From: a virus
Taxonomy: Duplodnaviria > Heunggongvirae > Uroviricota > Caudoviricetes
DNA: 58,745 nt
Strand: one strand, 5' to 3'
Virus record (IMG/VR): IMGVR_UViG_2531839662_000025
The position numbers and the translations under genes were made by a program. Below, in pieces: positions 33,682 through 58,745 of the stretch. Within the stretch, counting starts at the first letter, position 1. The number at the start of each line of letters is the position of its first letter. Below the pieces are notes generated by a model. That model was not told the DNA's origin. It saw nothing but the letters and a program-made list of their open reading frames with translations, and made no database searches.

Positions 33682-33915
33682 TCAGGGTTTCCATTCACCT
33701 TTTACCCATTCCAGCACCTCAGATAAGCGCCAGACTTTTGTTTGTGGGCCAATACATATTTTTCGTGGAAATTTTCCTTCCTTTTCAAGTAACGATCTGT
33801 GTCTCCTGCCAAGAGCGGTTAACCATGCACATTCATCTTCCTTAATCATCCTGTCGATTGTTTCATCATTTTCAAGTTCTTCACGCGTAACTATTTGAAT
33901 CATTACTGTCACCAC
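33682..33915 (-). CDS. AlpA-family regulator / excisionase-like
   Basis: 77-aa HTH ORF next to integrase. Confidence 0.55.
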   Translation of the reverse strand: MVTVMIQIVTREELENDETIDRMIKEDECAWLTALGRRHRSLLEKEGKFPRKICIGPQTKVWRLSEVLEWVKGEWKP

Positions 33916-35104
33916 TAATTTGCTTATTCAGATAGTCGTACCACCAGTTCATAGCTTCTTTTTTTCTGTCCATATACTGGCTTCTGTTATAAACCCCGGC
34001 AACACCGCCTAATGTGTGCCCAAGCAACTGTTCAACCACATTATGTTCAAAACCATGATCACTTAGTTTTGTGGCAAACACTCTTCGCATATCATGCGCC
34101 GTCCATTTCTCCGAGTGTTTCATCCTTTTCCATGTCTTACCGATAGTTACGCTTGCCGTACACTGACGCATATCAAACCCAATCACATTTTCTTTGTTAC
34201 CTGTTATTTTTTTTAACGTAACTAACCAGTTAAACATGCCATCAGGAATCGGTCTGATTATTTCCCTGCCATTTTTGCTATGATCAGCGGGAACGCGCCA
34301 TAATTTCTTATCAAAATCCCACTCTACCCAGGACGACAGTAATACTTCTGACAGTCGACAACCAAAAACTACCAGGAAACGTAAAATAATTCGGTTTTCA
34401 TATGATAATTCGTGATTGTCATAATCAGTATTAATACTTCGCCATAAATCTCTGATTTCATCATCTGTTAAAACCCTGCTTCTTCGCGCAGACTTTTTTC
34501 CCACATCACAGACCTCAAGATCATCAATTTCATGACTAATCGCGTATTTTCTTACCCTACAAAATTTAAGCGCCTGTTTTGATATACGCAACAAAGCTCC
34601 GGCCTGTACAGGTGCTACTTTTTTTATTTTGTCAAAACACTTAATCCACATAGATATAGAGCAATCACTAAGTGGTACATGACCAATCACCGGATAAATA
34701 TGTTTACCAAAGCACTGCCTGATATGTTCTGCTCCCCTACGCTTATCCATTGCATAATTATCAAGCCAGTATTCAAGTGCCTCACGAACGGTAACAGGTT
34801 GCAAGGTGGCTTCCCGTTCAATTTTTATCTGAATCCGTGGATCTCTGCCCTCCGCAAGCCAGGTTCGACACTGATCGCGCATCTCTCTCGCTGATTTGAG
34901 ACTCAGATCAGGATATTTTCCAAGTGTCAGCCAGATGGGCGCGGTTCCCCTTCCCGCCAGTCTGTAAAAGAAAACAAAACTAACACATCCGTATTTACTG
35001 ACCCGTACCGAAAGCCCGTTACCATCAGCGATGGTTTCCTGCCTCTCACTCCTGCGTCCAAGCAGGGAACGAAGTTTTTTATCGCTCAGTTTGTTTAGCG
35101 CCAT
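33881..35104 (-). CDS. tyrosine integrase (P4-type)
   Basis: Track ORF 33881-35140; likely start MALNKLSDKKL at 35104; P4-type N-terminal arm-binding pattern and C-terminal catalytic region. Confidence 0.8.
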   Translation of the reverse strand: MALNKLSDKKLRSLLGRRSERQETIADGNGLSVRVSKYGCVSFVFFYRLAGRGTAPIWLTLGKYPDLSLKSAREMRDQCRTWLAEGRDPRIQIKIEREATLQPVTVREALEYWLDNYAMDKRRGAEHIRQCFGKHIYPVIGHVPLSDCSISMWIKCFDKIKKVAPVQAGALLRISKQALKFCRVRKYAISHEIDDLEVCDVGKKSARRSRVLTDDEIRDLWRSINTDYDNHELSYENRIILRFLVVFGCRLSEVLLSSWVEWDFDKKLWRVPADHSKNGREIIRPIPDGMFNWLVTLKKITGNKENVIGFDMRQCTASVTIGKTWKRMKHSEKWTAHDMRRVFATKLSDHGFEHNVVEQLLGHTLGGVAGVYNRSQYMDRKKEAMNWWYDYLNKQISGDSNDSNSYA

Positions 35105-35124
35105 GTGATTTATAACCCGTTTTT

Positions 35125-35145
35125 GCAATACACAGTGCAATACAC
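35125..35145. repeat. arm-type repeat GCAATACACAGTGCAATACAC
   Basis: Direct repeat of the motif at 20377-20397. Confidence 0.5.
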
Positions 35146-47471: not shown

Positions 47472-49043
47472 TTACTGAGAGGTCAGATCAACTTTCCAGG
47501 GCAACAGATCGCGTACCCGGTTTGCCGGCCAATCCTGGATATGCTCAATGACGTAACGCAGCCATTTTTCTGGTTCCACATTGTTCAGACGGCATGTGCC
47601 GATCAGCGAGTACAACACCGCCGCATGTTCGCCACCGCTGTCGGAACCCGCGAAGAGCCAGTTTTTCCGGCCTACGGCCACTCCCCGTAAGGCGTTCTCT
47701 GCGATGTTGTTGTCGATTTCCACCCAGCCATTACTGCAGTACACGTTCAGGGCCTCCCACTGTTTCAGCAGGTATGCGAACGCTTTTGCCGTATCCGAGT
47801 GACGCGACAGTGTTTTCATCTGTTCCTGTATCCAGTCATACAGTGACTGCATCAGTGGAGCCGCTCTGGCTTTTCTTGCTGCCAGACGCTGTTCTGCTGA
47901 ACATCCCCGGACTTCTGCCTCGATGACATACAGTTCACCGATACGCTGCAGGGCTTCCGTGGTGATGTCGGTGGGCACTCTTGCATGCACATCGTGGATT
48001 TTTCTCCGGGCATGGGCCATACACGCGGCTTCCGTTATTCTGCCGGATTCGTATAACGCCCGGTAACCACCGTAAGCATCTGCCTGAAGCACACCGCTGT
48101 AACCGGCCAGGTGATTCTGTGGATGGATACCTTTCCGGTCCGGGCTGTACGCGAACCAGACCGCCGGGGGCATCTGTGAACCGGCGTTACGGTCATCACG
48201 GACATAGACCCACAGCCGGGCAGTTCTTGTTTTACCACTGCCCGGCTCCTGGACCGGAACGGGGATATCATCCGCATGGACTTTACCGGGCATCAGCACA
48301 TACTGGCGCAGGACGTCATACAGCGGCTCCAGCAGTTCAGCAACGGCACCTGTCCAGCGCCCCAGCGTGGCGCGGCTCAGCTCCACGCCCTGGCGACGGT
48401 ATATTTCTGACTGGCGGTATAACGGCAGATGGTCTGCATATTTCCCGGTAACAACATGGGCCAGAAGCCCCGCTCCGGCATAACTGCGTGCAATGGGTTT
48501 TGAAGGTACTGTTGCCTGCACGATATGGTCGCACCGACAACAGGCCAGTTTCGGACGTTGTGTTTCGATAACCTTAAAGGCGCTGCTGATAAGCTCCAGT
48601 TGCTCTGACACATCACACCCCAGAGGACTGAGGTCACCACCACAGGCCGGGCAGCATTCCTCTTCCGGCCGGATGACCCGGGTTTCACGGGGAAGTGAGG
48701 CCGGTAACGGTTTACGGGCTGAAGACTGGCGCAGGGCGGATGGCAGTACCGGGTCATATTGCTCACCCAGCGTTTCCGCCATTTCTTCCTGAAGTGCGCT
48801 GATTCGCTCCTGTGCTTCCTGTATCTGCCGTTCGGTTTTAGCGCGAAGTTTTTCTGAGCTTTTACCGAACTGCATGCGCTGCAGTTTCGCAACCAGCGCC
48901 TTCAGCCGGTTGATTTCGGAAGCATAAGCCGCCACCCGCTGTGAGAGCAGGCGGTTGTATTTCGCCATCTGGCGGATGGTGTCCTGTTGCGTCTGCAACA
49001 GTGCCCGCAGGCGGGCATTCTCATGAGCAAGTGAGGTGTCCAT
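47472..49043 (-). CDS. tnpC: IS66-family transposase TnpC
   Basis: 523-aa ORF with N-terminal leucine zipper, CCPACGG zinc motif and DDE-type core. Confidence 0.9.
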
Positions 49044-49062
49044 ATCCTCACTTTACAACGGG

Positions 49063-49411
49063 TTATATGCGGATGCCAGCGCGTTCCGTTCGTTTCGGGT
49101 GCTTCCAGTCGATGCCTTCGAGAAGCATGGACAACTGAGCCGGAGTAAGGTGAACCTTTCCATCGCGGGTGACCGGCCAGACGAAGCGGCCCCGCGTCCA
49201 GGCGTTTGGTGAAGAGGCACAGTCCGTCACTGTCAGCCCACAGCACTTTTATCTGGTCACCCCGGCGTCCGCGGAAGATGAACAGATGCCCGGAGAACGG
49301 GTCATCCTTCAGGACGTTCTGAACTTTTGAGGCCAGGCCGTTAAAGCCATTTCGCATATCGGTGATACCGGCAACCAGCCAGATACGCGAACCGGCAGGG
49401 AGAGATATCAT
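49063..49411 (-). pseudogene. tnpB: IS66-family TnpB, apparent +1 frameshift in a G-run
   Basis: Track ORF 48902-49411 leaves the expected frame after KRL; the shifted frame gives RFVWPVTRDGKVHLTPAQLSMLLEGIDWKHPKRTERAGIRI and stops just before tnpC. Confidence 0.5.
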
Positions 49412-50061
49412 CAGTGGCTGCTCCCTTTCATTTCGCGGATAAGTGTCTGTAATAACGCCGGTGTCAGTTCACCTTTCAGCCTGAGAGTTCCGGCCGGCAG
49501 AACCAGCTCGCAGCACAGACTGTCTGGCAGTGTATTTATCTGTTCAGGTATCTGCACTGGTGCCGGGATTTTATTATCCGGCTCCGGAGTTAACGTCACG
49601 GGAAGTAGCGATGTTTCATGTTCGCCGGGCGGTTGCAGGCCACCGTTACGCCAGAGATGCCGCCAGTTAAAGAGCAGGTTATCGTTAATTCCATTCTCTC
49701 GAGCTATTTGTGCGACACAGGCACCGGGTAAAAGAGTTTGCTGAACCAGTCTCCATTTAAACTCCGGTGAAAATCGGTTCCGGCGGGGTTTCTCTGCTTT
49801 CACAGGCTGAGTCACGGTCGGGGCTGAAGGGTATCGCCCCGGGAAAAGAGCCCGGGCCAGTTGCCCGCAGGAATATTCACCGGAAAGAGGCCAGTCAGTG
49901 AATACCTGGTGAAATCGCCTCACCAGAGAAAAAATGGTGGTTTTGCTGACACCGGTCTGCGCAGAAATGCGCGGGTACGACAGTGACTCGTCAAATCTCA
50001 GCTGTAGCACACGCAGGATCAATTCCGGATTGTCTGCCAGTACCGCTTTTCGTGCATTCAT
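49411..50061 (-). CDS. tnpA: IS66-family accessory protein TnpA (orf1)
   Basis: 216-aa HTH ORF at the start of the IS operon. Confidence 0.7.
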   Translation of the reverse strand: MNARKAVLADNPELILRVLQLRFDESLSYPRISAQTGVSKTTIFSLVRRFHQVFTDWPLSGEYSCGQLARALFPGRYPSAPTVTQPVKAEKPRRNRFSPEFKWRLVQQTLLPGACVAQIARENGINDNLLFNWRHLWRNGGLQPPGEHETSLLPVTLTPEPDNKIPAPVQIPEQINTLPDSLCCELVLPAGTLRLKGELTPALLQTLIREMKGSSH

Positions 50062-50146
50062 CTTAAATGTCCCTTTACTGCGAAAATGGACATTAGTATC
50101 GGAAACAGGAAAGGGAGGCGAAAGACGGTTTAAATGAGACGGTTAC

Positions 50147-50154
50147 GGTTGTGC
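50147..50154. repeat. 8-bp target site duplication GGTTGTGC (right)
   Basis: Direct repeat of 47434-47441. Confidence 0.75.
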
Positions 50155-50442
50155 TCCGGCTTTACCCTGTTTTTGTGCTGGTTTGCGGATAACCCTTGCT
50201 TTTCTTGCCGAACTTGCCAGCCATTCACGGTAAACTCCCTCTGAAAGGAATACCCCTTTTCCGCTGACAACATACACTTCGCCCTGGCTCACCAGCATCT
50301 TCAGGTACCGGCGAATGGAATCATGTGAAGCATATGTTGTCGATGCCAGTTGTGGCATTGTCATACGCCCGTTTTTACGTACAAGGTCAACGATGTGACG
50401 CTGTAATCTTTCCCGCTGTTCTTCGGTATAAATAGCCCCCAT
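50147..50442 (-). pseudogene. winged-helix phage protein disrupted by the IS66 insertion
   Basis: Track ORF 50143-50442 takes its stop codon from the IS terminus; the same frame continues on the other side of the IS at 47441-47328 for 34 more codons. Confidence 0.65.
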
Positions 50443-50484
50443 AAACTCTCCTGAGAAAATAACTTCATAACCTCAAATCAACAC

Positions 50485-51432
50485 TTACCCCCTGAACCCC
50501 GGCGGAATTTCGGTGTCCGGTTCAGAAATGTGATTCACGCAACGCTGTACAGGCGAACGCCCCAGACGAATAACCAGCTCATCCCATTTTTCGCGAAGCT
50601 TTGACGGGCTCATGACGTTTTTTACCCAGAATGGATCCCGCTGTACCCGACCAAACATTTCGCAAATTTGTCTGTGAGTTCTGCCATCCAGCATCCGCAT
50701 TGTGCGCACATCATTGGCCCATGCAGTCCAGTTGGGTTCTTTCGGTCGCATGATTTCGCCATCATCGCTGGCAGCCTGCTCGTAAAGACTCACGATTCGT
50801 CCCCAGATCCACTGCGCACACGCTAAATCTTCCTGGCTGCCCCACTGGCGTTTTTTCGCACTGAACACAACCGCGTCAGGGTGTCGGGTTAAAAAATCCT
50901 GTTCAGCCGTCTGCGAGTCCGGTTGCGAAGCTTCCGGACGAAAAGATCTTTTATCTGACGGATCAGGTTTTAATACTGACGGATCGGGGCCAACCATCGC
51001 CCCCCTAACCGGATGTTTTTTATCAACGGTTGATCCATCAAAATTTGAGGGGTCAATCGTTGAGGGGTCAATATTTGACGGGTCATTTTTTACCGGGTTA
51101 ATTTTTCTTTTCGGTTTATATGCCTCACGCGCCGCCGCTGCTGCTGCTTCGAGTTTTTCCACATTAAGACGGTAGATATTGCTTTCATTACGCCCACCGA
51201 CCTTACGTTCTTCCTTCGTCAGCCAGCCGTTCTTTTCCAGTTCTGCTATCGCAGCTTTAACCGTTGATTCACTCTTTGCCCCAATCTGACGACGAATGGT
51301 CTCCACTGCAGGCCATGACACACCTTCGTCATTGCTGTAATCTGCAAGGCGAGCCATTACTGCCACCCTGGATAAGATCATGCCGGTGAAGGCACACCCT
51401 TCCCAGACAAGACCATGAAGCTTGCTGCTCAT
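50485..51432 (-). CDS. replication initiation protein, lambda O-like
   Basis: 315-aa ORF: N-terminal HTH, internal peptide repeats (DPSNIDPSTIDPSNFDGSTVD) encoded by DNA iterons. Confidence 0.7.
   Translation of the reverse strand: MSSKLHGLVWEGCAFTGMILSRVAVMARLADYSNDEGVSWPAVETIRRQIGAKSESTVKAAIAELEKNGWLTKEERKVGGRNESNIYRLNVEKLEAAAAAAREAYKPKRKINPVKNDPSNIDPSTIDPSNFDGSTVDKKHPVRGAMVGPDPSVLKPDPSDKRSFRPEASQPDSQTAEQDFLTRHPDAVVFSAKKRQWGSQEDLACAQWIWGRIVSLYEQAASDDGEIMRPKEPNWTAWANDVRTMRMLDGRTHRQICEMFGRVQRDPFWVKNVMSPSKLREKWDELVIRLGRSPVQRCVNHISEPDTEIPPGFRG
50954..51106. repeat. origin iterons inside the O-like gene
   Basis: Tandem TTGAGGGGTCAAT / TTGACGGGTCATT / TGACGGATC repeats followed by an AT-rich stretch. 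Confidence 0.6.
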
Positions 51433-51455
51433 AAAAAACTCCGAACACCGTGCTT

Positions 51456-51881
51456 TTAGTGCATCACCACGGCATTTCCCGCCGGACCACCACGATTCAT
51501 CTGATTGAAACCAGCGATCGCCACTGCGACAAAATCATCAGCGTCTCTCACCAGTCGTTCCCGCATCTCCACCAGCTCCCGAAAATAGGCTGAACTGTGG
51601 CTGCGCATTCGGGCCACCAGCAGAGGTGGCATTGCCTTTTCGATCGCCGGTAACAGCGCCTGAATTTTTTTAACCGCATCAGGGGTGTCTTTCTCCACCC
51701 AGCGGAAAATTTTCTGAGTATTGCGAGCCAGGGCTTCCGGATGCCTGTCGTCATATAGCTCCGGGAACGTCATACCAAGCTCAAAATAAGCCTGGGTTAT
51801 TTCAGCTGCCGGAACTTTTTCACCGTCCGGATGCGCCCAGGCATTCATCGCCATGCGGATGTGTTCATGCTTGATTTTCAT
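51456..51881 (-). CDS. YdaT-like protein (CII-like regulator)
   Basis: 141-aa ORF closely resembling Rac YdaT as I recall it. Confidence 0.6.
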   Translation of the reverse strand: MKIKHEHIRMAMNAWAHPDGEKVPAAEITQAYFELGMTFPELYDDRHPEALARNTQKIFRWVEKDTPDAVKKIQALLPAIEKAMPPLLVARMRSHSSAYFRELVEMRERLVRDADDFVAVAIAGFNQMNRGGPAGNAVVMH

Positions 51882-52093
51882 TAATCATTCTTTCCTTCGT
51901 TCGAGGTGCTATCCTGCTTCTTGTAAAGTTCTGGGTTGTATTTCAATTCACCGTTAGTAATTTCATCCAGTTCCATTGCGCGAAGTTTGGGAATAACTGC
52001 TTTCCACCGCACAACAGCCACATGTGAAATTCCAAGAGCCTCAGCTACTAGTCGCTTTTTTTTGAAATAGCGCAGAACATCATCTTTGAACAT
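51881..52093 (-). CDS. Cro-like HTH regulator (YdaS-like)
   Basis: 70-aa HTH ORF divergent from the cI-like gene. Confidence 0.65.
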   Translation of the reverse strand: MFKDDVLRYFKKKRLVAEALGISHVAVVRWKAVIPKLRAMELDEITNGELKYNPELYKKQDSTSNEGKND

Positions 52094-52121
52094 AAAACTC
52101 TCCTGTTATTTCGAGCGGGAT

Positions 52122-52184
52122 GGTAACAATAGTTACATAGCAATGTCAACCATAGCAACATCACTTGGTAGTAACATTGGTTAC
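52122..52184. promoter_or_regulatory. operator sites in the cI/cro-like divergent promoter region
   Basis: GGTAACAATAGTTAC (52122-52136) and GTAACATTGGTTAC (52171-52184); palindromic half-sites GTAAC/GTTAC. Confidence 0.55.
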
Positions 52185-52859
52185 ATGAAAAACACTATCA
52201 GCGAACGTATTCGGAATCGTCGAAAAGACGTTGGATTAACCCAACAGCAGGTTGCGAAAGCAATCGGCATATCTCGTGTATCCGTAACAAAATGGGAAAA
52301 TGGCTCTTCAAAACCTGACGGTGAGAATTTGCATCTACTGTCAAAATTGCTTTCCAAATCTCCTGAATGGATTCTTTATGGAAAGGACTGTCACGATAAA
52401 ACCGATGATCTGCGTCTGAATCAGTACCCTTACATTAGTGACAACATCGCCCGGTTGCCCGTTTTAACGTGGGAACAGGCTGGTTATTGGGATATGAGTT
52501 GTCCAGTAACCGAGATTCCTGGTATTAAGAATTGGGTTGATGTCATGACAAAAACCGCTGAAAACTCTTTTTTATTGCATGTTGAGGGAGATGCGATGAC
52601 AAACTCTAACGGCCTCCCAACCATCCCCGACGGATCTACCGTGCTGATCACACCATGCTCAAGTAACATTAGAGAACTGGTGGGAAAAATAATCTTAATC
52701 CAATTGGAAGGAACGCCAAACGTAACACTAAAAAAAGTTGCGATTGACGGACCAAACATCTATCTGTTGTCACTGAATCCGCTTTACAAACCCATCGAAC
52801 TGAATGGTGGTTACACCATTAAAGGTAAAGTTTCACAAATACATCAATACTTAGACTGA
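52185..52859 (+). CDS. CI-like repressor (HTH plus S24 LexA-like peptidase domain)
   Basis: Track ORF 52086-52859; likely start MKNTISER at 52185 (alternative 52143). Confidence 0.75.
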   Translation: MKNTISERIRNRRKDVGLTQQQVAKAIGISRVSVTKWENGSSKPDGENLHLLSKLLSKSPEWILYGKDCHDKTDDLRLNQYPYISDNIARLPVLTWEQAGYWDMSCPVTEIPGIKNWVDVMTKTAENSFLLHVEGDAMTNSNGLPTIPDGSTVLITPCSSNIRELVGKIILIQLEGTPNVTLKKVAIDGPNIYLLSLNPLYKPIELNGGYTIKGKVSQIHQYLD

Positions 52860-52864
52860 GTCAG

Positions 52865-52891
52865 AACCCGCATTCATTGCGGGTTTTTTAT
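52865..52891 (+). terminator. rho-independent terminator after cI-like gene
   Basis: AACCCGC/GCGGGTT stem followed by TTTTTT. Confidence 0.65.
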
Positions 52892-52930
52892 GCTCTCGAA
52901 TGTACCTTTTGCAACACTGTATTGACTCGA

Positions 52931-52950
52931 AAGGTAACTCTTGTTACCTT
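52931..52950. promoter_or_regulatory. operator, perfect palindrome AAGGTAAC-TCTT-GTTACCTT
   Basis: Same GGTAAC half-site as the cI/cro operators, overlapping a TTGACT -35-like hexamer at the head of the leftward operon. Confidence 0.55.
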
Positions 52951-53050
52951 AACGACATACCAACCCACCCCGCCCCACAGAACGCAGGGCAATACTTCGA
53001 GTTACCAGGCAGTGGTCAGGGGTTAAGTAGCCAGCCCGAGGCGTAAGAAC

Positions 53051-53185
53051 ATGACGGCAGGGTTCAACTTTAACTATGCAGCAGGTTTTTGTTCCGCTAC
53101 CCCGGCGTTAAGGGGAAACAGCACTGAGAGGAATCAGTATGCAGAAACGAGAACCCGTCATCATCGCGCCAGACTATACCGATGA
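53051..53185 (+). CDS. possible small ORF (44 aa, YdfB-like position)
   Basis: Hand-translated MTAGFNFNYAAGF...; overlaps the start of the next gene in another frame. Confidence 0.25.
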   Translation: MTAGFNFNYAAGFCSATPALRGNSTERNQYAETRTRHHRARLYR

Positions 53186-53357
53186 TGAACTTTATGAGTG
53201 GATGCGCCAGAAAATTACGGCAGCGCAGGACCTGAAGTGGGCCAATGAAGCCAGGGCTAAGCAGGCTGAAAATCTGTCCGCTCTGGAGCAGGATATCACC
53301 AGGCTGGAAAAAGCAGCGGCATTAAGCATTGCCAGAATGATTACATACCCGCGTTAA
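53139..53357 (+). CDS. YdfC-like small protein
   Basis: 72-aa ORF resembling Qin YdfC as I recall it. Confidence 0.55.
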   Translation: MQKREPVIIAPDYTDDELYEWMRQKITAAQDLKWANEARAKQAENLSALEQDITRLEKAAALSIARMITYPR

Positions 53358-53492
53358 TAGCTAACCAACGAGGCTAAGGTTGGTAATTAAGGAGTTCTCC
53401 ACGGGTCAGGTGGAGTGCGTGCGCCGGACACGGGTGAGCATCCGGCACGTTCTTTAAAAATCTGGATAGTCCCAACTTATTTAAACGGTTAA

Positions 53493-53927
53493 TTATCTTG
53501 AGTTCATCCAGAACTTATTATTGCAAGCGGGGCAAAAAGTACGAAAATGAGCATCAAAGCGCATTATTTCCATTGGCTGAAGTACAGATATTACCTTTTT
53601 TCCAAAGCATTGTGGGCAAAGATGCACAGTTATCTCAGTATCGCCTATAAATTGCTTCTTGGAATATACAAGGGTTCCAGAATCAAGCTTGTTAAGCTTG
53701 TAACCTTCCGCCTGTCGCTGAAAATCTTCTGTCTCTGCAATTTTTGCTTTGAGATGCATTATCTCTTCATCACGAAAGCGGATCGCATCGCAAAGAGAGA
53801 AGCATTCCGCCTGAAGCGTGATTAGTTTGTTCTGAAGTTCAATAGTTGCGGCTTTAACTTCTGCATCCGTTTTTGCGTCATTAATAACCTTAGCGAGACC
53901 AGCTGTCTCCTTTATCGCAGCCATAGC
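53493..53927 (-). CDS. hypothetical coiled-coil / zinc-ribbon protein (reverse-oriented moron)
   Basis: Track ORF 53493-54068; likely start MAAIKETAG at 53927; C-terminal CPQC...CPAC; AT-rich; antisense to the surrounding plus-strand operon. Confidence 0.5.
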   Translation of the reverse strand, partial: AMAAIKETAGLAKVINDAKTDAEVKAATIELQNKLITLQAECFSLCDAIRFRDEEIMHLKAKIAETEDFQRQAEGYKLNKLDSGTLVYSKKQFIGDTEITVHLCPQCFGKKVISVLQPMEIMRFDAHFRTFCPACNNKFWMNSR

Positions 53928-54249
53928 TGCTGACAGTTCTGCTATCACGTTGAGTACTCTTCTCGTTGTTGGGGATATCCGGATTATACGAATTTCTTGT
54001 TGTTGGGGAATAACAGGAACCACCTCGCCTGACGTGGTTAAAAGCAGGCACACAACGCGAAAGCGCACGGCGAGGTAGCTGGTTCATAGATAGCCTGTCG
54101 TTAAATTTTCGTCGACAGTGCGCTTCCGGTTGTGGCACTCCGCGAAATGGCGCGGCGGTAAGTATGGCGGGGTTATCCTTGCCCCATTAGTGGCACCGGG
54201 TTGTCAGGTTGACCATACGCCTGAGTGACAACCCCGCTGCAACAACCCA

Positions 54250-54306
54250 TGTTGATTACCTTTTTGGCGGCATCAGTTTCATTGCTGGCTGATGTCCGCC
54301 CTTTTT
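54250..54306 (+). ncRNA. dicF: DicF-like small RNA
   Basis: TTTGGCGGCATCAGTTT...CTGATGTCCGCCCTTTTT resembles E. coli DicF from memory, including terminator hairpin and T-run, immediately upstream of dicB; ends approximate. Confidence 0.45.
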
Positions 54307-54489
54307 AAAGTGAATTTTGTGATGCGGTGAATGCGGCTCAGCGCACGCGGAACAGTTAAAAAGGCCAGTTGACTTCCGTATTGGTTCTTATGGGTGGGTT
54401 CTCTGTATCCGGCGTTAATTATTAACTGGTTAACGTCACCTGGAGGCACCAGGCACCGCATCACAAAATTCATTGTTGAGGACGCGATA

Positions 54490-54678
54490 ATGGAAACGTT
54501 ATTACCAAACGTTAATACGTCTGAAGGTTGTTTTGAAATTGGTGTCAGAATCAGTAACCCTGTATTTACTGAAGATGCCATTAATAAGAGAAAACACGAA
54601 CGGGAGTTATTAAATAAAATATGCATTGTTTCAATGCTGGCCCGTTTACGTCTGATGCAAAAAGGATACTGGCAATGA
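54490..54678 (+). CDS. dicB: cell division inhibitor DicB
   Basis: 62-aa METLLPNVNTSEGCFEIGVRISNPVFTEDAINKRKHERELLNKICIVSMLARLRLMQKGYWQ, near-identical to K-12 DicB as recalled. Confidence 0.8.
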   Translation: METLLPNVNTSEGCFEIGVRISNPVFTEDAINKRKHERELLNKICIVSMLARLRLMQKGYWQ

Positions 54679-54878
54679 ATACTGCTATTGCCCTCACTCT
54701 GACTGTTTTTCTTAATACTGGCGAGCCTGTTGACATGGTTATTGACATTTACGGTTCAATGAAAGAATGCATGGCTGCCGCAGCAGAACAAAAAATTCCC
54801 GGTAACTGCTATCCGGTCGATAAAGTTATTCACATGGACAATAACGAAATCCCGGCAGGACTTAAAACAGCACCGTAA
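54675..54878 (+). CDS. YdfD-like small protein
   Basis: 67-aa ORF with hydrophobic N-terminus directly after dicB (ATGA overlap). Confidence 0.55.
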   Translation: MNTAIALTLTVFLNTGEPVDMVIDIYGSMKECMAAAAEQKIPGNCYPVDKVIHMDNNEIPAGLKTAP

Positions 54879-54958
54879 TTAATATCCGGTTTCATTTTTA
54901 TATGCCAGCAATGGCAGGGATTTGTTCACCCTTAAATCTGTAATGAGGTTAAAACAAA

Positions 54959-57439
54959 ATGAGTAAAGTCTTTATTTGCGCCGCCATTCCGGACGAACAG
55001 GCAATAAAGGAAGAAGGTGCAGTCGCTGTAGCCACTGCCATTGAAGCCGGCGACGAACGCCGCGCCCGTGCCAAATTTACCTGGCAATTCCTGGAGCAAT
55101 ATCCGGCTGCTCAGGACTGCGCTTATAAATTTCTTGTCTGCGAGGATAAACCCGGCATGCCCCGCCCTGCCATCGACTCCTGGGATACCGAATATATGCT
55201 GGAAAACCGCTGGGATGAGGAAGGCGCTTCCTTTGTTCCGGTCGAACCAGAATCCGATCCGATGAACGTCAATTTTGACAAGCTGTCCCTTGAAGTACAG
55301 AACGCGGTCCTGGTTAAGTTCGGTACATGTGAAAACATCACCGTTGATATGGTGATTAGTGCACAGGAATTGTTGCAGGAGGACATGGCAACATTCGACG
55401 GGCATATCGTTGAGGCACTGATGAAAATGCCTGAAGTTAACGTCATGTATTCAGAACTAAAGCTGTTCGCCATCGGGTGGGTTAAACATAAATGTAAGCC
55501 GGGCGCAAAATGGCCTGAGATCCAGACAGAATTACGCACCTGGAAAAAACGTCGCGAAGCCGAACGCAAAGAAACCGGGAAATACACGTCTGTTGTTGAT
55601 CTTGCCCGCGCCAGAGTCAACCGGCAGCACACTGAAAACTCAGCAGGAAAAATCAACCCCGCCACTGCCGCCATTCGTCGCGAATACAAGCAGACATGGA
55701 AAACGCTGGATGAAGAACTGGCCTACGCTCTGTGGCCTGGCGATATTAATGCCGGAAACATTGACGGCAGCATCCATCGCTGGGCAAAAAATGAAGTTAT
55801 CGACAAAGATCGCGAAGACTGGAAGCGCATTTCCGCATCAATGCGCAAACAACCCGATGCCGTTCGCTACGACCGTCAGACTATTTTTGGCCTTGTCCGT
55901 GAGCGTCCGATCGACATTCACAAAGATCCCGTGGCACTGAACAAATACATCACTGAATACCTGGTGACAAAGGGCGTGTTTGAGGATGAAGAAACAGACC
56001 AGAACACTACTGATATTCTCCAGCCGTCAGCAGCACAAACTGATGCAGTGGAAACTGAAGTATCTGATACCCAAAAAAATGAAAGCACGCTGGAAACTGA
56101 ACCATCTGTAGAGCGTGAGGGGCCGTTCTACTTCCTTTTCACCGATAAGGATGGCGAAAAATATGGTCGTGCAAACAAACTTTCTGGTCTGAATAAGGCG
56201 CTGGCTGCAGGGGCTACTGAAATCACGAAAGAAGAATATTTTGCCCGCAAAAACGGCACATACTCAGGTTCACAACAAAATACTGGTGCATCTGACACGA
56301 CCGCACAACCGGAGCCGGTAAAAGTTACCGCTGACGAAGTAAACAAAATTATGCAGGCAGCCAATATCAGCCAGCCTGACGCCAATCAGTTGCTTGCTGT
56401 ATCACGTGGTGAATTTGTTGCAGGGATTAGCGACCCGAATGATCCGAAATGGGTGAAGGGGATTGAAACCCGCGATTCAGTGAATCAGAACCAGCAAGAA
56501 ACGGAACAGAACGACCAGAAAGCGGAACAAAACAGCCCAAATGCGTTACAAAACGAGCCAGAAACGAAACAACCTGAGCCAGTAGCGCAACAGGAAGCGG
56601 AAAAAGTCTGCACCGCCTGCGGTCAGACCGGCGGCGGCAACTGCCCTGATTGTGGTGCGGTGATGGGCGACGCAACATACCAGGAAACATTCGATGAAGA
56701 GAATCAGGTTGAAGTTCAGGAAAATGATCCGGAGGAAATGGAAGGCGCTGAACATCCACACAAGGAGAATGCTGGCAGCGCTCAGGACCACGCCAGCGAT
56801 AATGAAACTGGCGAGACGGCAGATCCCTTAATTGCGGTGAACGGTCATCACGTTATCACATCCACCAGCAGAGTGTGGTACCACCTGATGATCGACCTTG
56901 AAACAATGGGAACCAACACCAATGCGCCCATCGTGGTTATTGGTGCGGTTTTCTTCGACCCACAAACAGGGGAAATCGGGCCAGTATTTTATATCGTTAT
57001 CAGTCTGACTGACGCAATGAATACAGGGGCTGTTCCTGACGGTGGAACCATCGAATGGTGGCTGAAGCAGTCCAGTGAAGCCAGAGCTGCCATTTTAACA
57101 GACCAGGTAAAACTGAAGGATGCCCTTTCGCGGTTTCGGGAGTTCATCAACGAATACTCAGATGAAAAATTCGTTCAGGTATGGGGTAATGGTGCAACTT
57201 TCGATAACGCAATTTTGCGCACCTCATACGAACGTCTGGACATCCCCTGCCCGTGGCGCTACTACAACGATCGCGATGTACGCACAATCGTTGAGCTGGG
57301 AAAAACAATCGACTTTGATGCCAGAACAGTTATTCCATTTGAAGGCGTGCGCCACAATGCGCTGGATGATGCCCGTCACCAGGCAAAATACGTTACAGCC
57401 ACGATACAAAAACTGATCCCGAATCCGGTTGATTTTTAA
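54959..57439 (+). CDS. large early-left protein with C-terminal DEDD-type 3'-5' exonuclease domain
   Basis: 826-aa ORF; C-terminal ~200 aa carry exonuclease-like [18 protein letters not shown] and HNALDDARH motifs; internal [16 protein letters not shown] zinc ribbon. Confidence 0.55.
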
Positions 57440-57505
57440 TGTTCACCCCTGATCGCCGTCTCCGAATTATATTGGCGGCGGTCATGCTGTAAGGCACGTG
57501 ACCAC

Positions 57506-57757
57506 ATGTACGAATTAACTCTATCGCCAGCAGAGATTCAAGAGATCACGAAATACGAGCGATACACAAAACAGCAACACCAGTTAAGGCTGCACGGTAT
57601 CCCATTTGTAATCGGTCCTAAAAACGAACCAATAGTTCTTCGCAGGGATATTCCACACGGACTGACTACGATGCCAAAAGCACCTGAACTGGTTTCCGCT
57701 GAACCCGATTTTGAGGCGCTGAACAATGGGAAGACCAAGAAAAAACAAAAAAGATAA
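57506..57757 (+). CDS. putative excisionase (Xis-like)
   Basis: 83-aa ORF immediately upstream of and overlapping the integrase. Confidence 0.4.
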   Translation: MYELTLSPAEIQEITKYERYTKQQHQLRLHGIPFVIGPKNEPIVLRRDIPHGLTTMPKAPELVSAEPDFEALNNGKTKKKQKR

Positions 57758-58745
57758 TGCACTACCACCGCGTGTTAGATCGAATGGTTACAGTTACGTA
57801 TGGAAACCCGAAGGAAGCACAAGAACTATAGGGCTCGGAAGAGTGCGGGAAACCAGCGTAGCTAAAGTCTGGCAAAATTATGAGCTGGAAAAAGCAAAAC
57901 TCCACAACATAATGACAGTAGCTAAATTATGGCACATGTTTATGGACTCCCCTGCATTTACAGAACTGGCCCCCCGAACCCAAAAAGATTATCGGCAACA
58001 TCAAAGGGCATTGTTGGCAGTATTCGGAAAAGTGCTTGCTGATAATGTAAAAATTGAACAGGTAAGAATTTTCATGGATAAGCGAGGACTTGAGAGCAAG
58101 ACCCAGGCAAACCATGAACTGGCAAGTCTGAGCCGTGTATACGGATGGGGATATGAGCGTGGGTATGTGAAAAATAATCCATGCAAAGGAGTCAGAAAAT
58201 TCACACTTAAAGCCCGTACTGTTTACATCACCGATGAACAGTATGCTGCAATATATGCGGAAGCAATTCCACAGTTACGTATTGCAATGGAGATATCCTA
58301 TCTTTGTGCGGCAAGGCTCGGTGATGTACTCGAGCTGAAATGGCAGGATATTATGGATAAAGGGATTTACATTGAGCAAAACAAGACCGGCACTAAACAA
58401 ATCAAGGAATGGTCTCCGCGATTACGTACGGCGATCCAGTTAGCCCGAAATGTATCTTCCGGCACATGCGAGTATGTGATCAACACAACCAAAGGCGGGA
58501 AGGTAATAGCCAAGACGCTGAACAACTGGTGGAATCAGGCTAAACGTGCGGCCGAGCAAAAAGCCGGCGTTCCGTTTGGGTGCAACTTCCATGACATAAA
58601 AGCCAAAGGGATTTCAGATTACGAAGGCAGCAGTCGCGACAAACAAATTTTCAGTGGACACAAAACAGAAAATCAGGTGTTGATTTACGATCGTAAAACC
58701 AAAATCACCCCAACACTGGATTTGCCGCTTGTGGTCAGTAAGTAG
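57726..58745 (+). CDS. tyrosine integrase (lambda-type) of the host prophage
   Basis: 339-aa ORF ending at the window edge; phage-integrase N-terminal SAM-like and C-terminal catalytic regions. Confidence 0.8.
   Translation: MGRPRKNKKDNALPPRVRSNGYSYVWKPEGSTRTIGLGRVRETSVAKVWQNYELEKAKLHNIMTVAKLWHMFMDSPAFTELAPRTQKDYRQHQRALLAVFGKVLADNVKIEQVRIFMDKRGLESKTQANHELASLSRVYGWGYERGYVKNNPCKGVRKFTLKARTVYITDEQYAAIYAEAIPQLRIAMEISYLCAARLGDVLELKWQDIMDKGIYIEQNKTGTKQIKEWSPRLRTAIQLARNVSSGTCEYVINTTKGGKVIAKTLNNWWNQAKRAAEQKAGVPFGCNFHDIKAKGISDYEGSSRDKQIFSGHKTENQVLIYDRKTKITPTLDLPLVVSK

Follow-up and report, generated by a model that had tools for sequence, protein, structure and literature searches.

In the DNA record IMGVR_UViG_2531839662_000025, a stretch of 58,745 nucleotides (nt) from a virus of the class Caudoviricetes that is hereafter called the window, the gene at 54959-57439 of the plus strand encodes an 826-residue protein of the early-left operon of a lambdoid prophage. 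Sequence comparison identifies this protein as a relative of RecE in which the PD-(D/E)XK 5'-3' nuclease has been replaced by a 3'-5' exonuclease head of the DEDDh (DnaQ-like) type, and I regard the module architecture on which this reading is built (Table 1) as very nearly certain. Hereafter, the C-terminal catalytic domain is called the head, and the YdfE- or RecE-like region at the N terminus the platform.

Modular architecture of the protein

The reading of this DNA from its letters alone (the first-pass annotation) had described an 826-residue protein, and the open reading frame (ORF) list agrees: the frame begins with ATG and has no internal stop, and GAGG about 10 nt 5' of the ATG makes a good ribosome-binding site. 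The same reading placed a DEDD-type exonuclease domain at the C terminus. A Pfam scan of the whole protein found PF16473 (Rv2179c-like) at residues (aa) 642-814, in an alignment that takes in positions 2-175 of the 177 in the profile (E 6.1e-68; 228.4 bits, cut-off 27), as well as a weak RNase_T match. The catalytic residues D646, E648, D749, H799 and D804 align with D7, E9, D119, H186 and D191 of DexA, and the DEDDh residues are kept in most homologues and in T4-type DexA. The head is thus predicted to be catalytically intact.

The region preceding the head resembles RecE. In the NCBIfam RecE model PRK09709, positions 243-603 of 877, which lie outside the nuclease, match aa 219-626 with 274.4 bits against an equivalog cut-off of 1269. 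In a BLASTP comparison with the RecE of Rac-SA53, aa 474-624 were 74% identical and no similarity was seen in the nuclease domain; the shared stretch is 84% identical at the nucleotide level, with blastn breakpoints at aa 483 and 623, just ahead of the head, and Megablast also matched recE of Rac-SA53. Pfam detected a DUF3799/PDDEXK domain in Rac-SA53 RecE and none in the 826-residue protein. The end of the shared module is the junction for the exchange of nuclease heads. Like RecE, the 826-residue protein is long and made of several modules, and in each case the gene occupies the early-left position immediately ahead of xis and int. The two proteins differ as follows: the expected polarity is opposite, because the 826-residue protein has a DEDDh (3'-5') head instead of the PD-(D/E)XK (5'-3') head of RecE; its N-terminal 240 residues are of the YdfE_N type and not Exonuc_VIII; and no RecT, the partner of RecE in Rac, follows its gene.

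A central zinc ribbon and an acidic linker had also been noticed in the first reading, and both are there. The four cysteines of the ribbon (C551, C554, C562 and C565) are read directly from the sequence, while the Pfam zinc-ribbon models (DZR, Zn_ribbon) gave sub-threshold matches only, with a double zinc ribbon at aa 546-569; within the family, the ribbon is confined to E. coli-type members and the RecE of Rac-SA53. In the composition table, aa 571-600 have 12 acidic residues and not one that is basic, and a second stretch, aa 331-390, is likewise acidic.

A domain search of the N-terminal part, which the first-pass annotation had proposed, gave a mixed outcome. Scans of the separate N-terminal and middle segments with the local copy of Pfam yielded only sub-threshold zinc-ribbon matches, and aa 385-445 had no match. 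That copy lacks the models PF27430 (YdfE_N) and PF27432 (YdfE_C), so that these domains are assigned by proxy: both are precomputed on a 99%-identical partial copy of the protein and on all 120 listed close homologues. In the predicted structure, the first part of the platform consists of a small alpha/beta subdomain that takes up aa 1-95 and, at aa 105-206, a helical one; by BLAST, the second part matches RecE-type regions of many cluster representatives. By way of YdfE_N and YdfE_C, the Pfam families in its N-terminal 340 residues, the 826-residue protein resembles YdfE of the Qin prophage and ExoD of the DLP12 prophage; the E. coli K-12 genes ydfE and exoD are probably truncated fragments. 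With aa 1-370 as the query, the only homologues retrieved were partial E. coli proteins nearly identical to it. Further along, aa 385-445 are 40-97% identical by BLAST to representatives with DEDDh, PD-(D/E)XK and Rad52-like heads.

Exchange of heads on a common platform

How the platform and the head are combined was surveyed by comparing aa 1-470 with 1.84 billion cluster representatives in an exhaustive profile-free search. It returned only 188 relatives, and the family is therefore narrow. The 58 long representatives among them were classified by local BLAST and HMMER. Two N-terminal types (YdfE_N and Exonuc_VIII) and three heads (DEDDh, RecE-type PD-(D/E)XK and a third type devoid of a Pfam match) occurred in all six combinations, and further members had other heads or none. 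Sister variants thus pair Exonuc_VIII with the DEDDh head. One is found in phage vB_EcoS-689R5, where the middle and the head are the same, the protein differs before about aa 245, the DNA breakpoint lies near aa 454 and Exonuc_VIII, a Pfam domain of RecE, is found at the N terminus. In the blastn comparisons, the mosaic junctions coincide with module borders.

The third head has a sub-threshold Pfam match to Rad52_Rad22 on the motif KKSLTDA-KKAL-LGFSADV-LGLYD. Its AlphaFold model (confidence score, pLDDT, 84) was compared by Foldseek, and the top eight matches were all the human RAD52 N-terminal domain (E 1.7e-7 to 3.6e-6, probability 1.00); a sequence-profile search of this head against the PDB gave no match, so that the likeness to RAD52 comes from the fold comparison only. 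PHROGs 2489 and 7838 label it 'exonuclease'. Since the third head has the RAD52 fold, one and the same platform would serve nucleases of either polarity (5'-3' or 3'-5') as well as an annealase, which ties the platform to recombination proteins. The platform with a Rad52-fold head was seen in the protein P0130 (contig L006, 5001-7337) and in about 20 other cluster representatives. These proteins may be the 'RecE-2' proteins that, according to PMC12315714, seem to have no nuclease domain. A fourth C-terminal type, which belongs to phrog_26058 and has no Pfam match, sits on the YdfE platform of a 702-residue protein (P0126).

Head type and partner gene go together in the contexts examined. At the one locus examined that encodes a PD-(D/E)XK head (that of protein P0129), a RecT homologue follows (39% identity, E 7e-61). 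The genes of two metagenomic relatives with a DEDDh head lie directly ahead of xis and int with no annealase, and a member with a Rad52 head comes after a Gam homologue and ahead of Sipho_Gp157, with no nuclease gene. As to what the platform contributes, a review (PMC11611040) states that the nuclease domain of RecE alone suffices genetically and that full-length RecE enhances linear-linear recombination.

Absence of an annealase

According to the first-pass annotation, no RecT- or Bet-like gene lies ahead of xis and int, and three kinds of search agree with it. In the E. coli UMNF18 genome, where the gene is 100% identical (as it is in PSJ-22), the Prokaryotic Genome Annotation Pipeline (PGAP) gives no RecT, Bet or Erf name anywhere across the lambdoid prophage. 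Within the lambdoid part, PHROG scans of the ten ORFs that had no name or only a weak one revealed no annealase. Finally, tblastn was run against the whole window, the full genome of phage HannyBb and parts of the phages Tritos (52 of 56 features) and Evi: lambda Bet, Rac RecT, P22 Erf and the Rad52-like domain found nothing below E 0.01, and neither did lambda Exo, Gam, P22 Abc2 or the RecE nuclease. The window therefore differs from a lambda Red- or RecET-type module in that no Bet, RecT, Erf, Rad52-like protein, lambda Exo or RecE nuclease was found in it. HannyBb (45 kb, complete) and Tritos (46 kb) have the order cI ... dicB, ydfD, exonuclease, xis, int and no annotated annealase; because they share this layout, the absence of an annealase is a property of the phage type and not of a defective prophage.

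The further statement that an exonuclease is 'usually' paired with an annealase in the early-left operon of lambdoid phages was too strong. In PMC12315714, 68 genomes (22%) of the Enterobacteriales lambdoid panel are without a recognisable Rec module, and Bobay et al. 2013, as cited there, counted 134 of 275 lambdoid (pro)phages without an annealase. Phages that lack a Rec module are linked in the same paper to plentiful Chi sites and dependence on RecBCD, and wild-type lambda is described as having no Chi sites. The lambdoid part of the window (23.6 kb) contains 13 Chi octamers (GCTGGTGG), against about 0.5 expected from base composition, and the whole window 28 against about 1.3; one lies within the exonuclease gene, at 56862 on the minus strand, and Chi is also present within the HannyBb and Tritos orthologues. 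HannyBb has 7 in all, and the lambda red-gam region (2.6 kb) none. The enrichment in the lambdoid part therefore fits the RecBCD-reliant class of lambdoid phages.

Distribution and selection

The gene is already catalogued and very common in E. coli prophages, and is not new. The protein is matched over its entire length by PHROG 2082 ('exonuclease'; 1-826 of 823), and RefSeq WP_000048567.1, also named 'exonuclease', is identical to it. By Megablast, the gene occurs in 30 phage records, of which 17 cover 80% of it or more, and matches 4800 of 5426 complete E. coli genomes (88%), with at least 80% of the gene covered in 3462 (64%). It is variously recorded as 'exonuclease', '3'-5' exonuclease' and '3'-5' exoribonuclease domain-containing protein', and by mistake also as 'exodeoxyribonuclease VIII' and 'exonuclease VIII, ds DNA exonuclease'; the exonuclease VIII name was carried over to many records from the non-nuclease region shared with RecE. 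Full-length homologues occur throughout E. coli prophages and phages, all of them uncharacterised, and the protein is not an orphan. The refuting case named in the first-pass annotation, clear full-length homology to a characterised protein, was not found, and characterised relatives cover only parts of the protein: RecE aa 219-626, and DexA and its E. coli homologue EcD aa 644-819. Literature searches on Rv2179c in phages, exoD/DLP12, ydfE/Qin and YdfE found no functional study.

These data bear on whether the gene has a function at all. It could be a relic, a remnant of RecE fused by accident to a DEDDh gene and carried along in decaying prophages, and the prophage in the window is indeed defective, with an insertion of the IS66 family and several pseudogenes; the probable fragments of such genes in E. 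coli K-12 would also fit. However, comparisons with Evi, Tritos and HannyBb gave a ratio of nonsynonymous to synonymous substitution rates (dN/dS) of 0.21 overall and of 0.15-0.35 in every part, namely 0.15 in aa 1-340, 0.30-0.35 in the linker region and 0.17-0.33 in the head; each module is thus under purifying selection. No catalytic residue has been lost, full-length copies are present in the 3462 genomes mentioned above and in viable phages, and the same type of fusion is kept in divergent lineages whose heads are 52-59% identical. Selection and distribution thus largely refute the relic explanation, which I consider barely credible.

Relation of the head to DexA, EcD and Rv2179c

The head domain is present in 1258 phage records, T4-type dexA among them. 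Stand-alone DEDDh homologues in four unrelated phages adjoin a helicase gene, polymerase and Cas4 genes, an integrase gene or hypothetical genes, and these mixed contexts do not settle function. The nearest relatives of the head that have been tested by experiment are T4 DexA and EcD (also HREX), which have the same DEDDh fold with the five catalytic residues aligned. Both act on DNA, from the 3' end (PMC12153337). They are distant and differently built: the head is about 30% identical to DexA and 34% to an EcD-like protein, and they are stand-alone proteins of 227 and about 189 residues, whereas the 826-residue protein has an N-terminal extension of 640 residues.

EcD digests T4 DNA modified with 5-hydroxymethylcytosine (5hmC) and protects cells from T4 when plasmid-borne (PMC12153337). 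It is represented here by a stand-alone 189-residue protein from viral contigs and not by the EcD record HAK9828821.1 itself. The published forward primer for EcD starts with ATGATTGACACCGAAAC, and the protein begins with the same sequence; it has Ala78, and Trp and Glu at the positions of DexA W152 and D169, as PMC12153337 describes for EcD. The 23-mer of the reverse primer had no match in the viral contigs. The idea that EcD is a mere fragment of the 826-residue protein was rejected, the EcD-like protein being a separate 189-residue family that is 34% identical to aa 644-819. It was found in viral contigs L021, L026, L036, L039 and L042, which suggests that genes of the anti-T4 EcD family themselves reside on contigs of viruses or prophages.

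At the positions that distinguish EcD, the 826-residue protein departs from it. The tetramer-forming Asp (D90 in DexA), which is Ala78 in EcD, is retained as Asp721; the position of DexA W152, a Trp in the EcD-like protein, is Tyr769; and that of D169, a Glu in the EcD-like protein, is Lys782, although this loop is aligned with gaps and the last assignment is uncertain. By the criteria of PMC12153337, the protein is predicted not to be a 5hmC-specific enzyme of the HREX type.

The kinship to EcD raises the possibility of a nuclease that acts in anti-phage defence or superinfection exclusion by degrading competitor nucleic acid, with the N-terminal part sensing or targeting, in the manner of EcD or of the ISG20-like TONDO exonucleases of prophages. 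Besides the protection by EcD and the 34% identity of the EcD-like protein to the head, this would agree with the action of prophage-borne DEDDh exonucleases with auxiliary domains against RNA phages (PMC13344964, where BLAST searches for TONDO candidates took only matches shorter than 500 residues) and with the presence of the intact gene in most E. coli genomes, many copies being in cryptic prophages. I nevertheless judge it unlikely. Of the EcD residues assigned to 5hmC recognition, the Trp is not kept, nor probably the acidic residue, and the Asp lost in EcD is present; the gene stands at the distal end of a repressor-controlled early-left operon with no promoter-like site found upstream; and the platform is common to RecE and the Rad52-fold annealase, which are recombination proteins and not known defence proteins.

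A second possibility starts from DexA. The only PDB sequence match, exodeoxyribonuclease 8kel (227 residues, E 7.8e-9), aligns like T4-type DexA, for which a role in scavenging host DNA is described in PMC12153337. By analogy, the 826-residue protein could be an enzyme of host takeover or nucleotide salvage that converts host or fragmented DNA into mononucleotides during lytic growth, and early expression would fit. PGAP names and PHROG scans reveal, however, no endonuclease partner in the operon, and salvage leaves both the RecE-like platform and its exchange with an annealase head unexplained; temperate lambdoid phages, moreover, are not known to degrade the host chromosome. This explanation is decidedly improbable.

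The substrate might, alternatively, be RNA or small nucleotides: the head would then trim the dicF-dicB regulatory RNAs, nanoRNAs or immune signalling nucleotides. PF16473 is named after Rv2179c, a 3'-5' exoribonuclease of Mycobacterium tuberculosis and the founder of the family, which the head matches over its full length; there is a weak NCBIfam match to oligoribonuclease (E 0.0034), and a DicF-like small RNA (sRNA) lies upstream within the same operon. Rv2179c is, however, a stand-alone exoribonuclease according to its Pfam description, whereas the 826-residue protein is phage-borne, multi-domain and found in a context of DNA recombination. Its closest tested relatives, DexA and EcD, are DNases, its gene occupies the place of recE, its platform is common to DNA recombination proteins, and no defence-signalling context is present. 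I regard an RNA or small-nucleotide substrate as highly unlikely.

A possible role in DNA-end processing

The first reading had left function undecided between recombination, anti-defence and host takeover. The evidence favours the first, in the sense of recombination or end processing, short of proof. In the scheme that I propose, induction or infection would lead to transcription of the gene as part of the early-left operon; a promoter scan of the plus strand from the repressor to the exonuclease gene found no sigma-70-like promoter. The RecE-like platform would bring the DEDDh head to linear DNA ends, where the head would take nucleotides off the 3' ends. Two outcomes can be envisaged in these phages, which are rich in Chi and have neither an annealase nor Gam. 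Trimming of 3' tails might allow host RecBCD and RecA to act on phage DNA ends. Alternatively, the exposure of 5' single-stranded cohesive ends might allow joining without a dedicated annealase, as with E. coli exonuclease III during in-vivo cloning; a 3'-5' exonuclease, exonuclease III, is reported to be able to drive annealase-independent end joining in E. coli (PMC6379578). In favour of an end-processing role, sequenced viable phages (HannyBb and Tritos) carry the same layout without an annealase. The swapping of heads on a platform shared with recombination proteins, the agreement of head type with partner gene, the junctions at module borders, the purifying selection, the action of DexA and EcD on DNA, the enrichment of Chi and the effect of full-length RecE on linear-linear recombination also speak for it.

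Several points weigh against this scheme. DnaQ-type 3'-5' exonucleases usually inhibit homologous recombination (PMC12315714), and loss of exonuclease I is reported to enhance RecET assembly (PMC13048471); since such enzymes usually reduce recombination, a pro-recombination role is not the default expectation. Int-proximal DnaQ-type genes are not counted by PMC12315714 as members of the Rec module. The Pfam family is named for an exoribonuclease, which makes an RNA substrate possible, and a fold comparison of the platform gave no informative match. The full-length members of the family are known from their sequences, from which the role of the 826-residue protein is deduced. Finally, because the prophage in the window is defective, the gene may serve no lytic cycle here now. 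Taking both sides together, 3'-5' exonuclease activity on DNA is probable, a role in recombination or end processing has slightly less than an even chance, and the explanation as a whole, a RecE-like platform with 3'-5' trimming of DNA ends in lytic growth, seems to me evenly poised.

A broader conjecture can be attached to it. The YdfE/RecE N-terminal region might be a general lambdoid delivery platform that brings interchangeable DNA-processing heads (5'-3' nuclease, 3'-5' nuclease, Rad52-fold annealase and at least one more) to one common target. The DEDDh version would then be an undescribed annealase-free route of 3'-5' resection in Chi-rich, RecBCD-using phages, and the Rad52-fold fusions would be unrecognised annealases. 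I offer it tentatively, as somewhat unlikely in this full form.

Neighbouring genes and other features of the window

The window consists of two adjacent prophages, one of the myovirus type (1-35100), with a tail sheath, a tape measure and an integrase at about 33881-35140, and the lambdoid one (35100-58745). The latter carries the IS66-family insertion at 47472-50061, and its terminase, methyltransferase and replication genes are frameshifted in the UMNF18 RefSeq record. There, the PGAP order is LexA-family repressor, ydfC, an antisense hypothetical gene, dicB, DUF1482, 'exonuclease', DUF4224, integrase and the host gene yccA. The order dicB, ydfD-like gene, exonuclease is that of Qin-type phages and is also found in Tritos, 689R5 and metagenomic relatives.

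Between ydfC and dicB, a 191-residue ORF runs antisense to the early-left operon (53493-54068, minus strand); it belongs to phrog_1244 and has a C-terminal CxxC...CxxC, and RefSeq has a 151-residue hypothetical protein at this locus. A divergent DicF-like sRNA at 54250-54301 (plus strand) matches positions 1-52 of the Rfam DicF model with 32.4 bits against a gathering threshold of 48 (E 2.5e-5) and includes a terminator-like hairpin at 54269-54296; it lies upstream of dicB, as does the annotated DicF of Tritos. A sub-threshold match to STnc100 was seen at 54313-54467. At gathering thresholds, Rfam detected no RNA family in 50000-58745.

Table 1. Modules of the 826-residue protein and neighbouring genes of the early-left operon (positions in the window)
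Feature	Residues	Position	Strand	Basis
Complete ORF, RecE-related early-left-operon protein with predicted DEDDh exonuclease head	1-826	54959-57439	+	ORF list, PHROG 2082, RefSeq identity, dN/dS
N-terminal platform, part 1, YdfE_N type	1-206	54959-55576	+	
N-terminal platform, part 2, YdfE_C-type helical domain	245-340	55691-55978	+	PF27432, match to RecE model, helical in predicted structure
Acidic low-complexity linker	341-385	55979-56113	+	composition; homologue alignment stops here
Small conserved middle module, GPFYF...EEYFARKNG	386-445	56114-56293	+	BLAST
Module common to Rac-type RecE, holding zinc ribbon and acidic linker	474-624	56378-56830	+	BLASTP, blastn, Megablast
Zinc ribbon, C551-x2-C554-x7-C562-x2-C565	551-565	56609-56653	+	direct reading
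Strongly acidic linker ahead of nuclease head	571-625	56669-56833	+	composition
DEDDh (DnaQ-like) 3'-5' exonuclease domain, Rv2179c/DexA family	642-814	56882-57400	+	PF16473, PDB match, alignment
LexA/S24-type CI-like repressor, head of leftward operon		52086-52859	+	Pfam HTH_3 and Peptidase_S24
dicB		54490-54678	+	Pfam DicB, RefSeq
DUF1482/ydfD-like gene		54675-54878	+	Pfam DUF1482, RefSeq
DUF4224 excisionase-like gene		57506-57757	+	Pfam, ORF list
Tyrosine integrase		57726-58745	+	ORF list, Pfam, RefSeq

Significance

DnaQ-type nucleases at an int-proximal position are already in the literature: PMC12315714 describes early-left operons of lambdoid phages that encode such 3'-5' nucleases, in some cases 'very near int' and separate from the canonical Rec module. 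The fusion to a RecE-like platform and the exchange of heads are absent from the main text of that paper. What is added here is the relationship to RecE with the exact module borders, the matrix of swapped heads with its Rad52-fold fusions labelled exonucleases in PHROGs, and the negative result on 5hmC specificity of the EcD type.

The gene is among the most widespread of E. coli prophage genes, yet its annotation goes no further than 'exonuclease' or is mistaken ('exodeoxyribonuclease VIII'). The pattern of head swapping flags likely mis-annotated Rad52-fold annealases, and it offers a practical handle on the function of the N-terminal region of RecE, a protein used in recombineering. The role of the 826-residue protein would help to explain how DNA ends are handled in lambdoid phages that have neither Red or RecET recombinases nor Gam, a matter of relevance to phage mosaicism and to the way in which prophages, those with Shiga toxin among them, spread.

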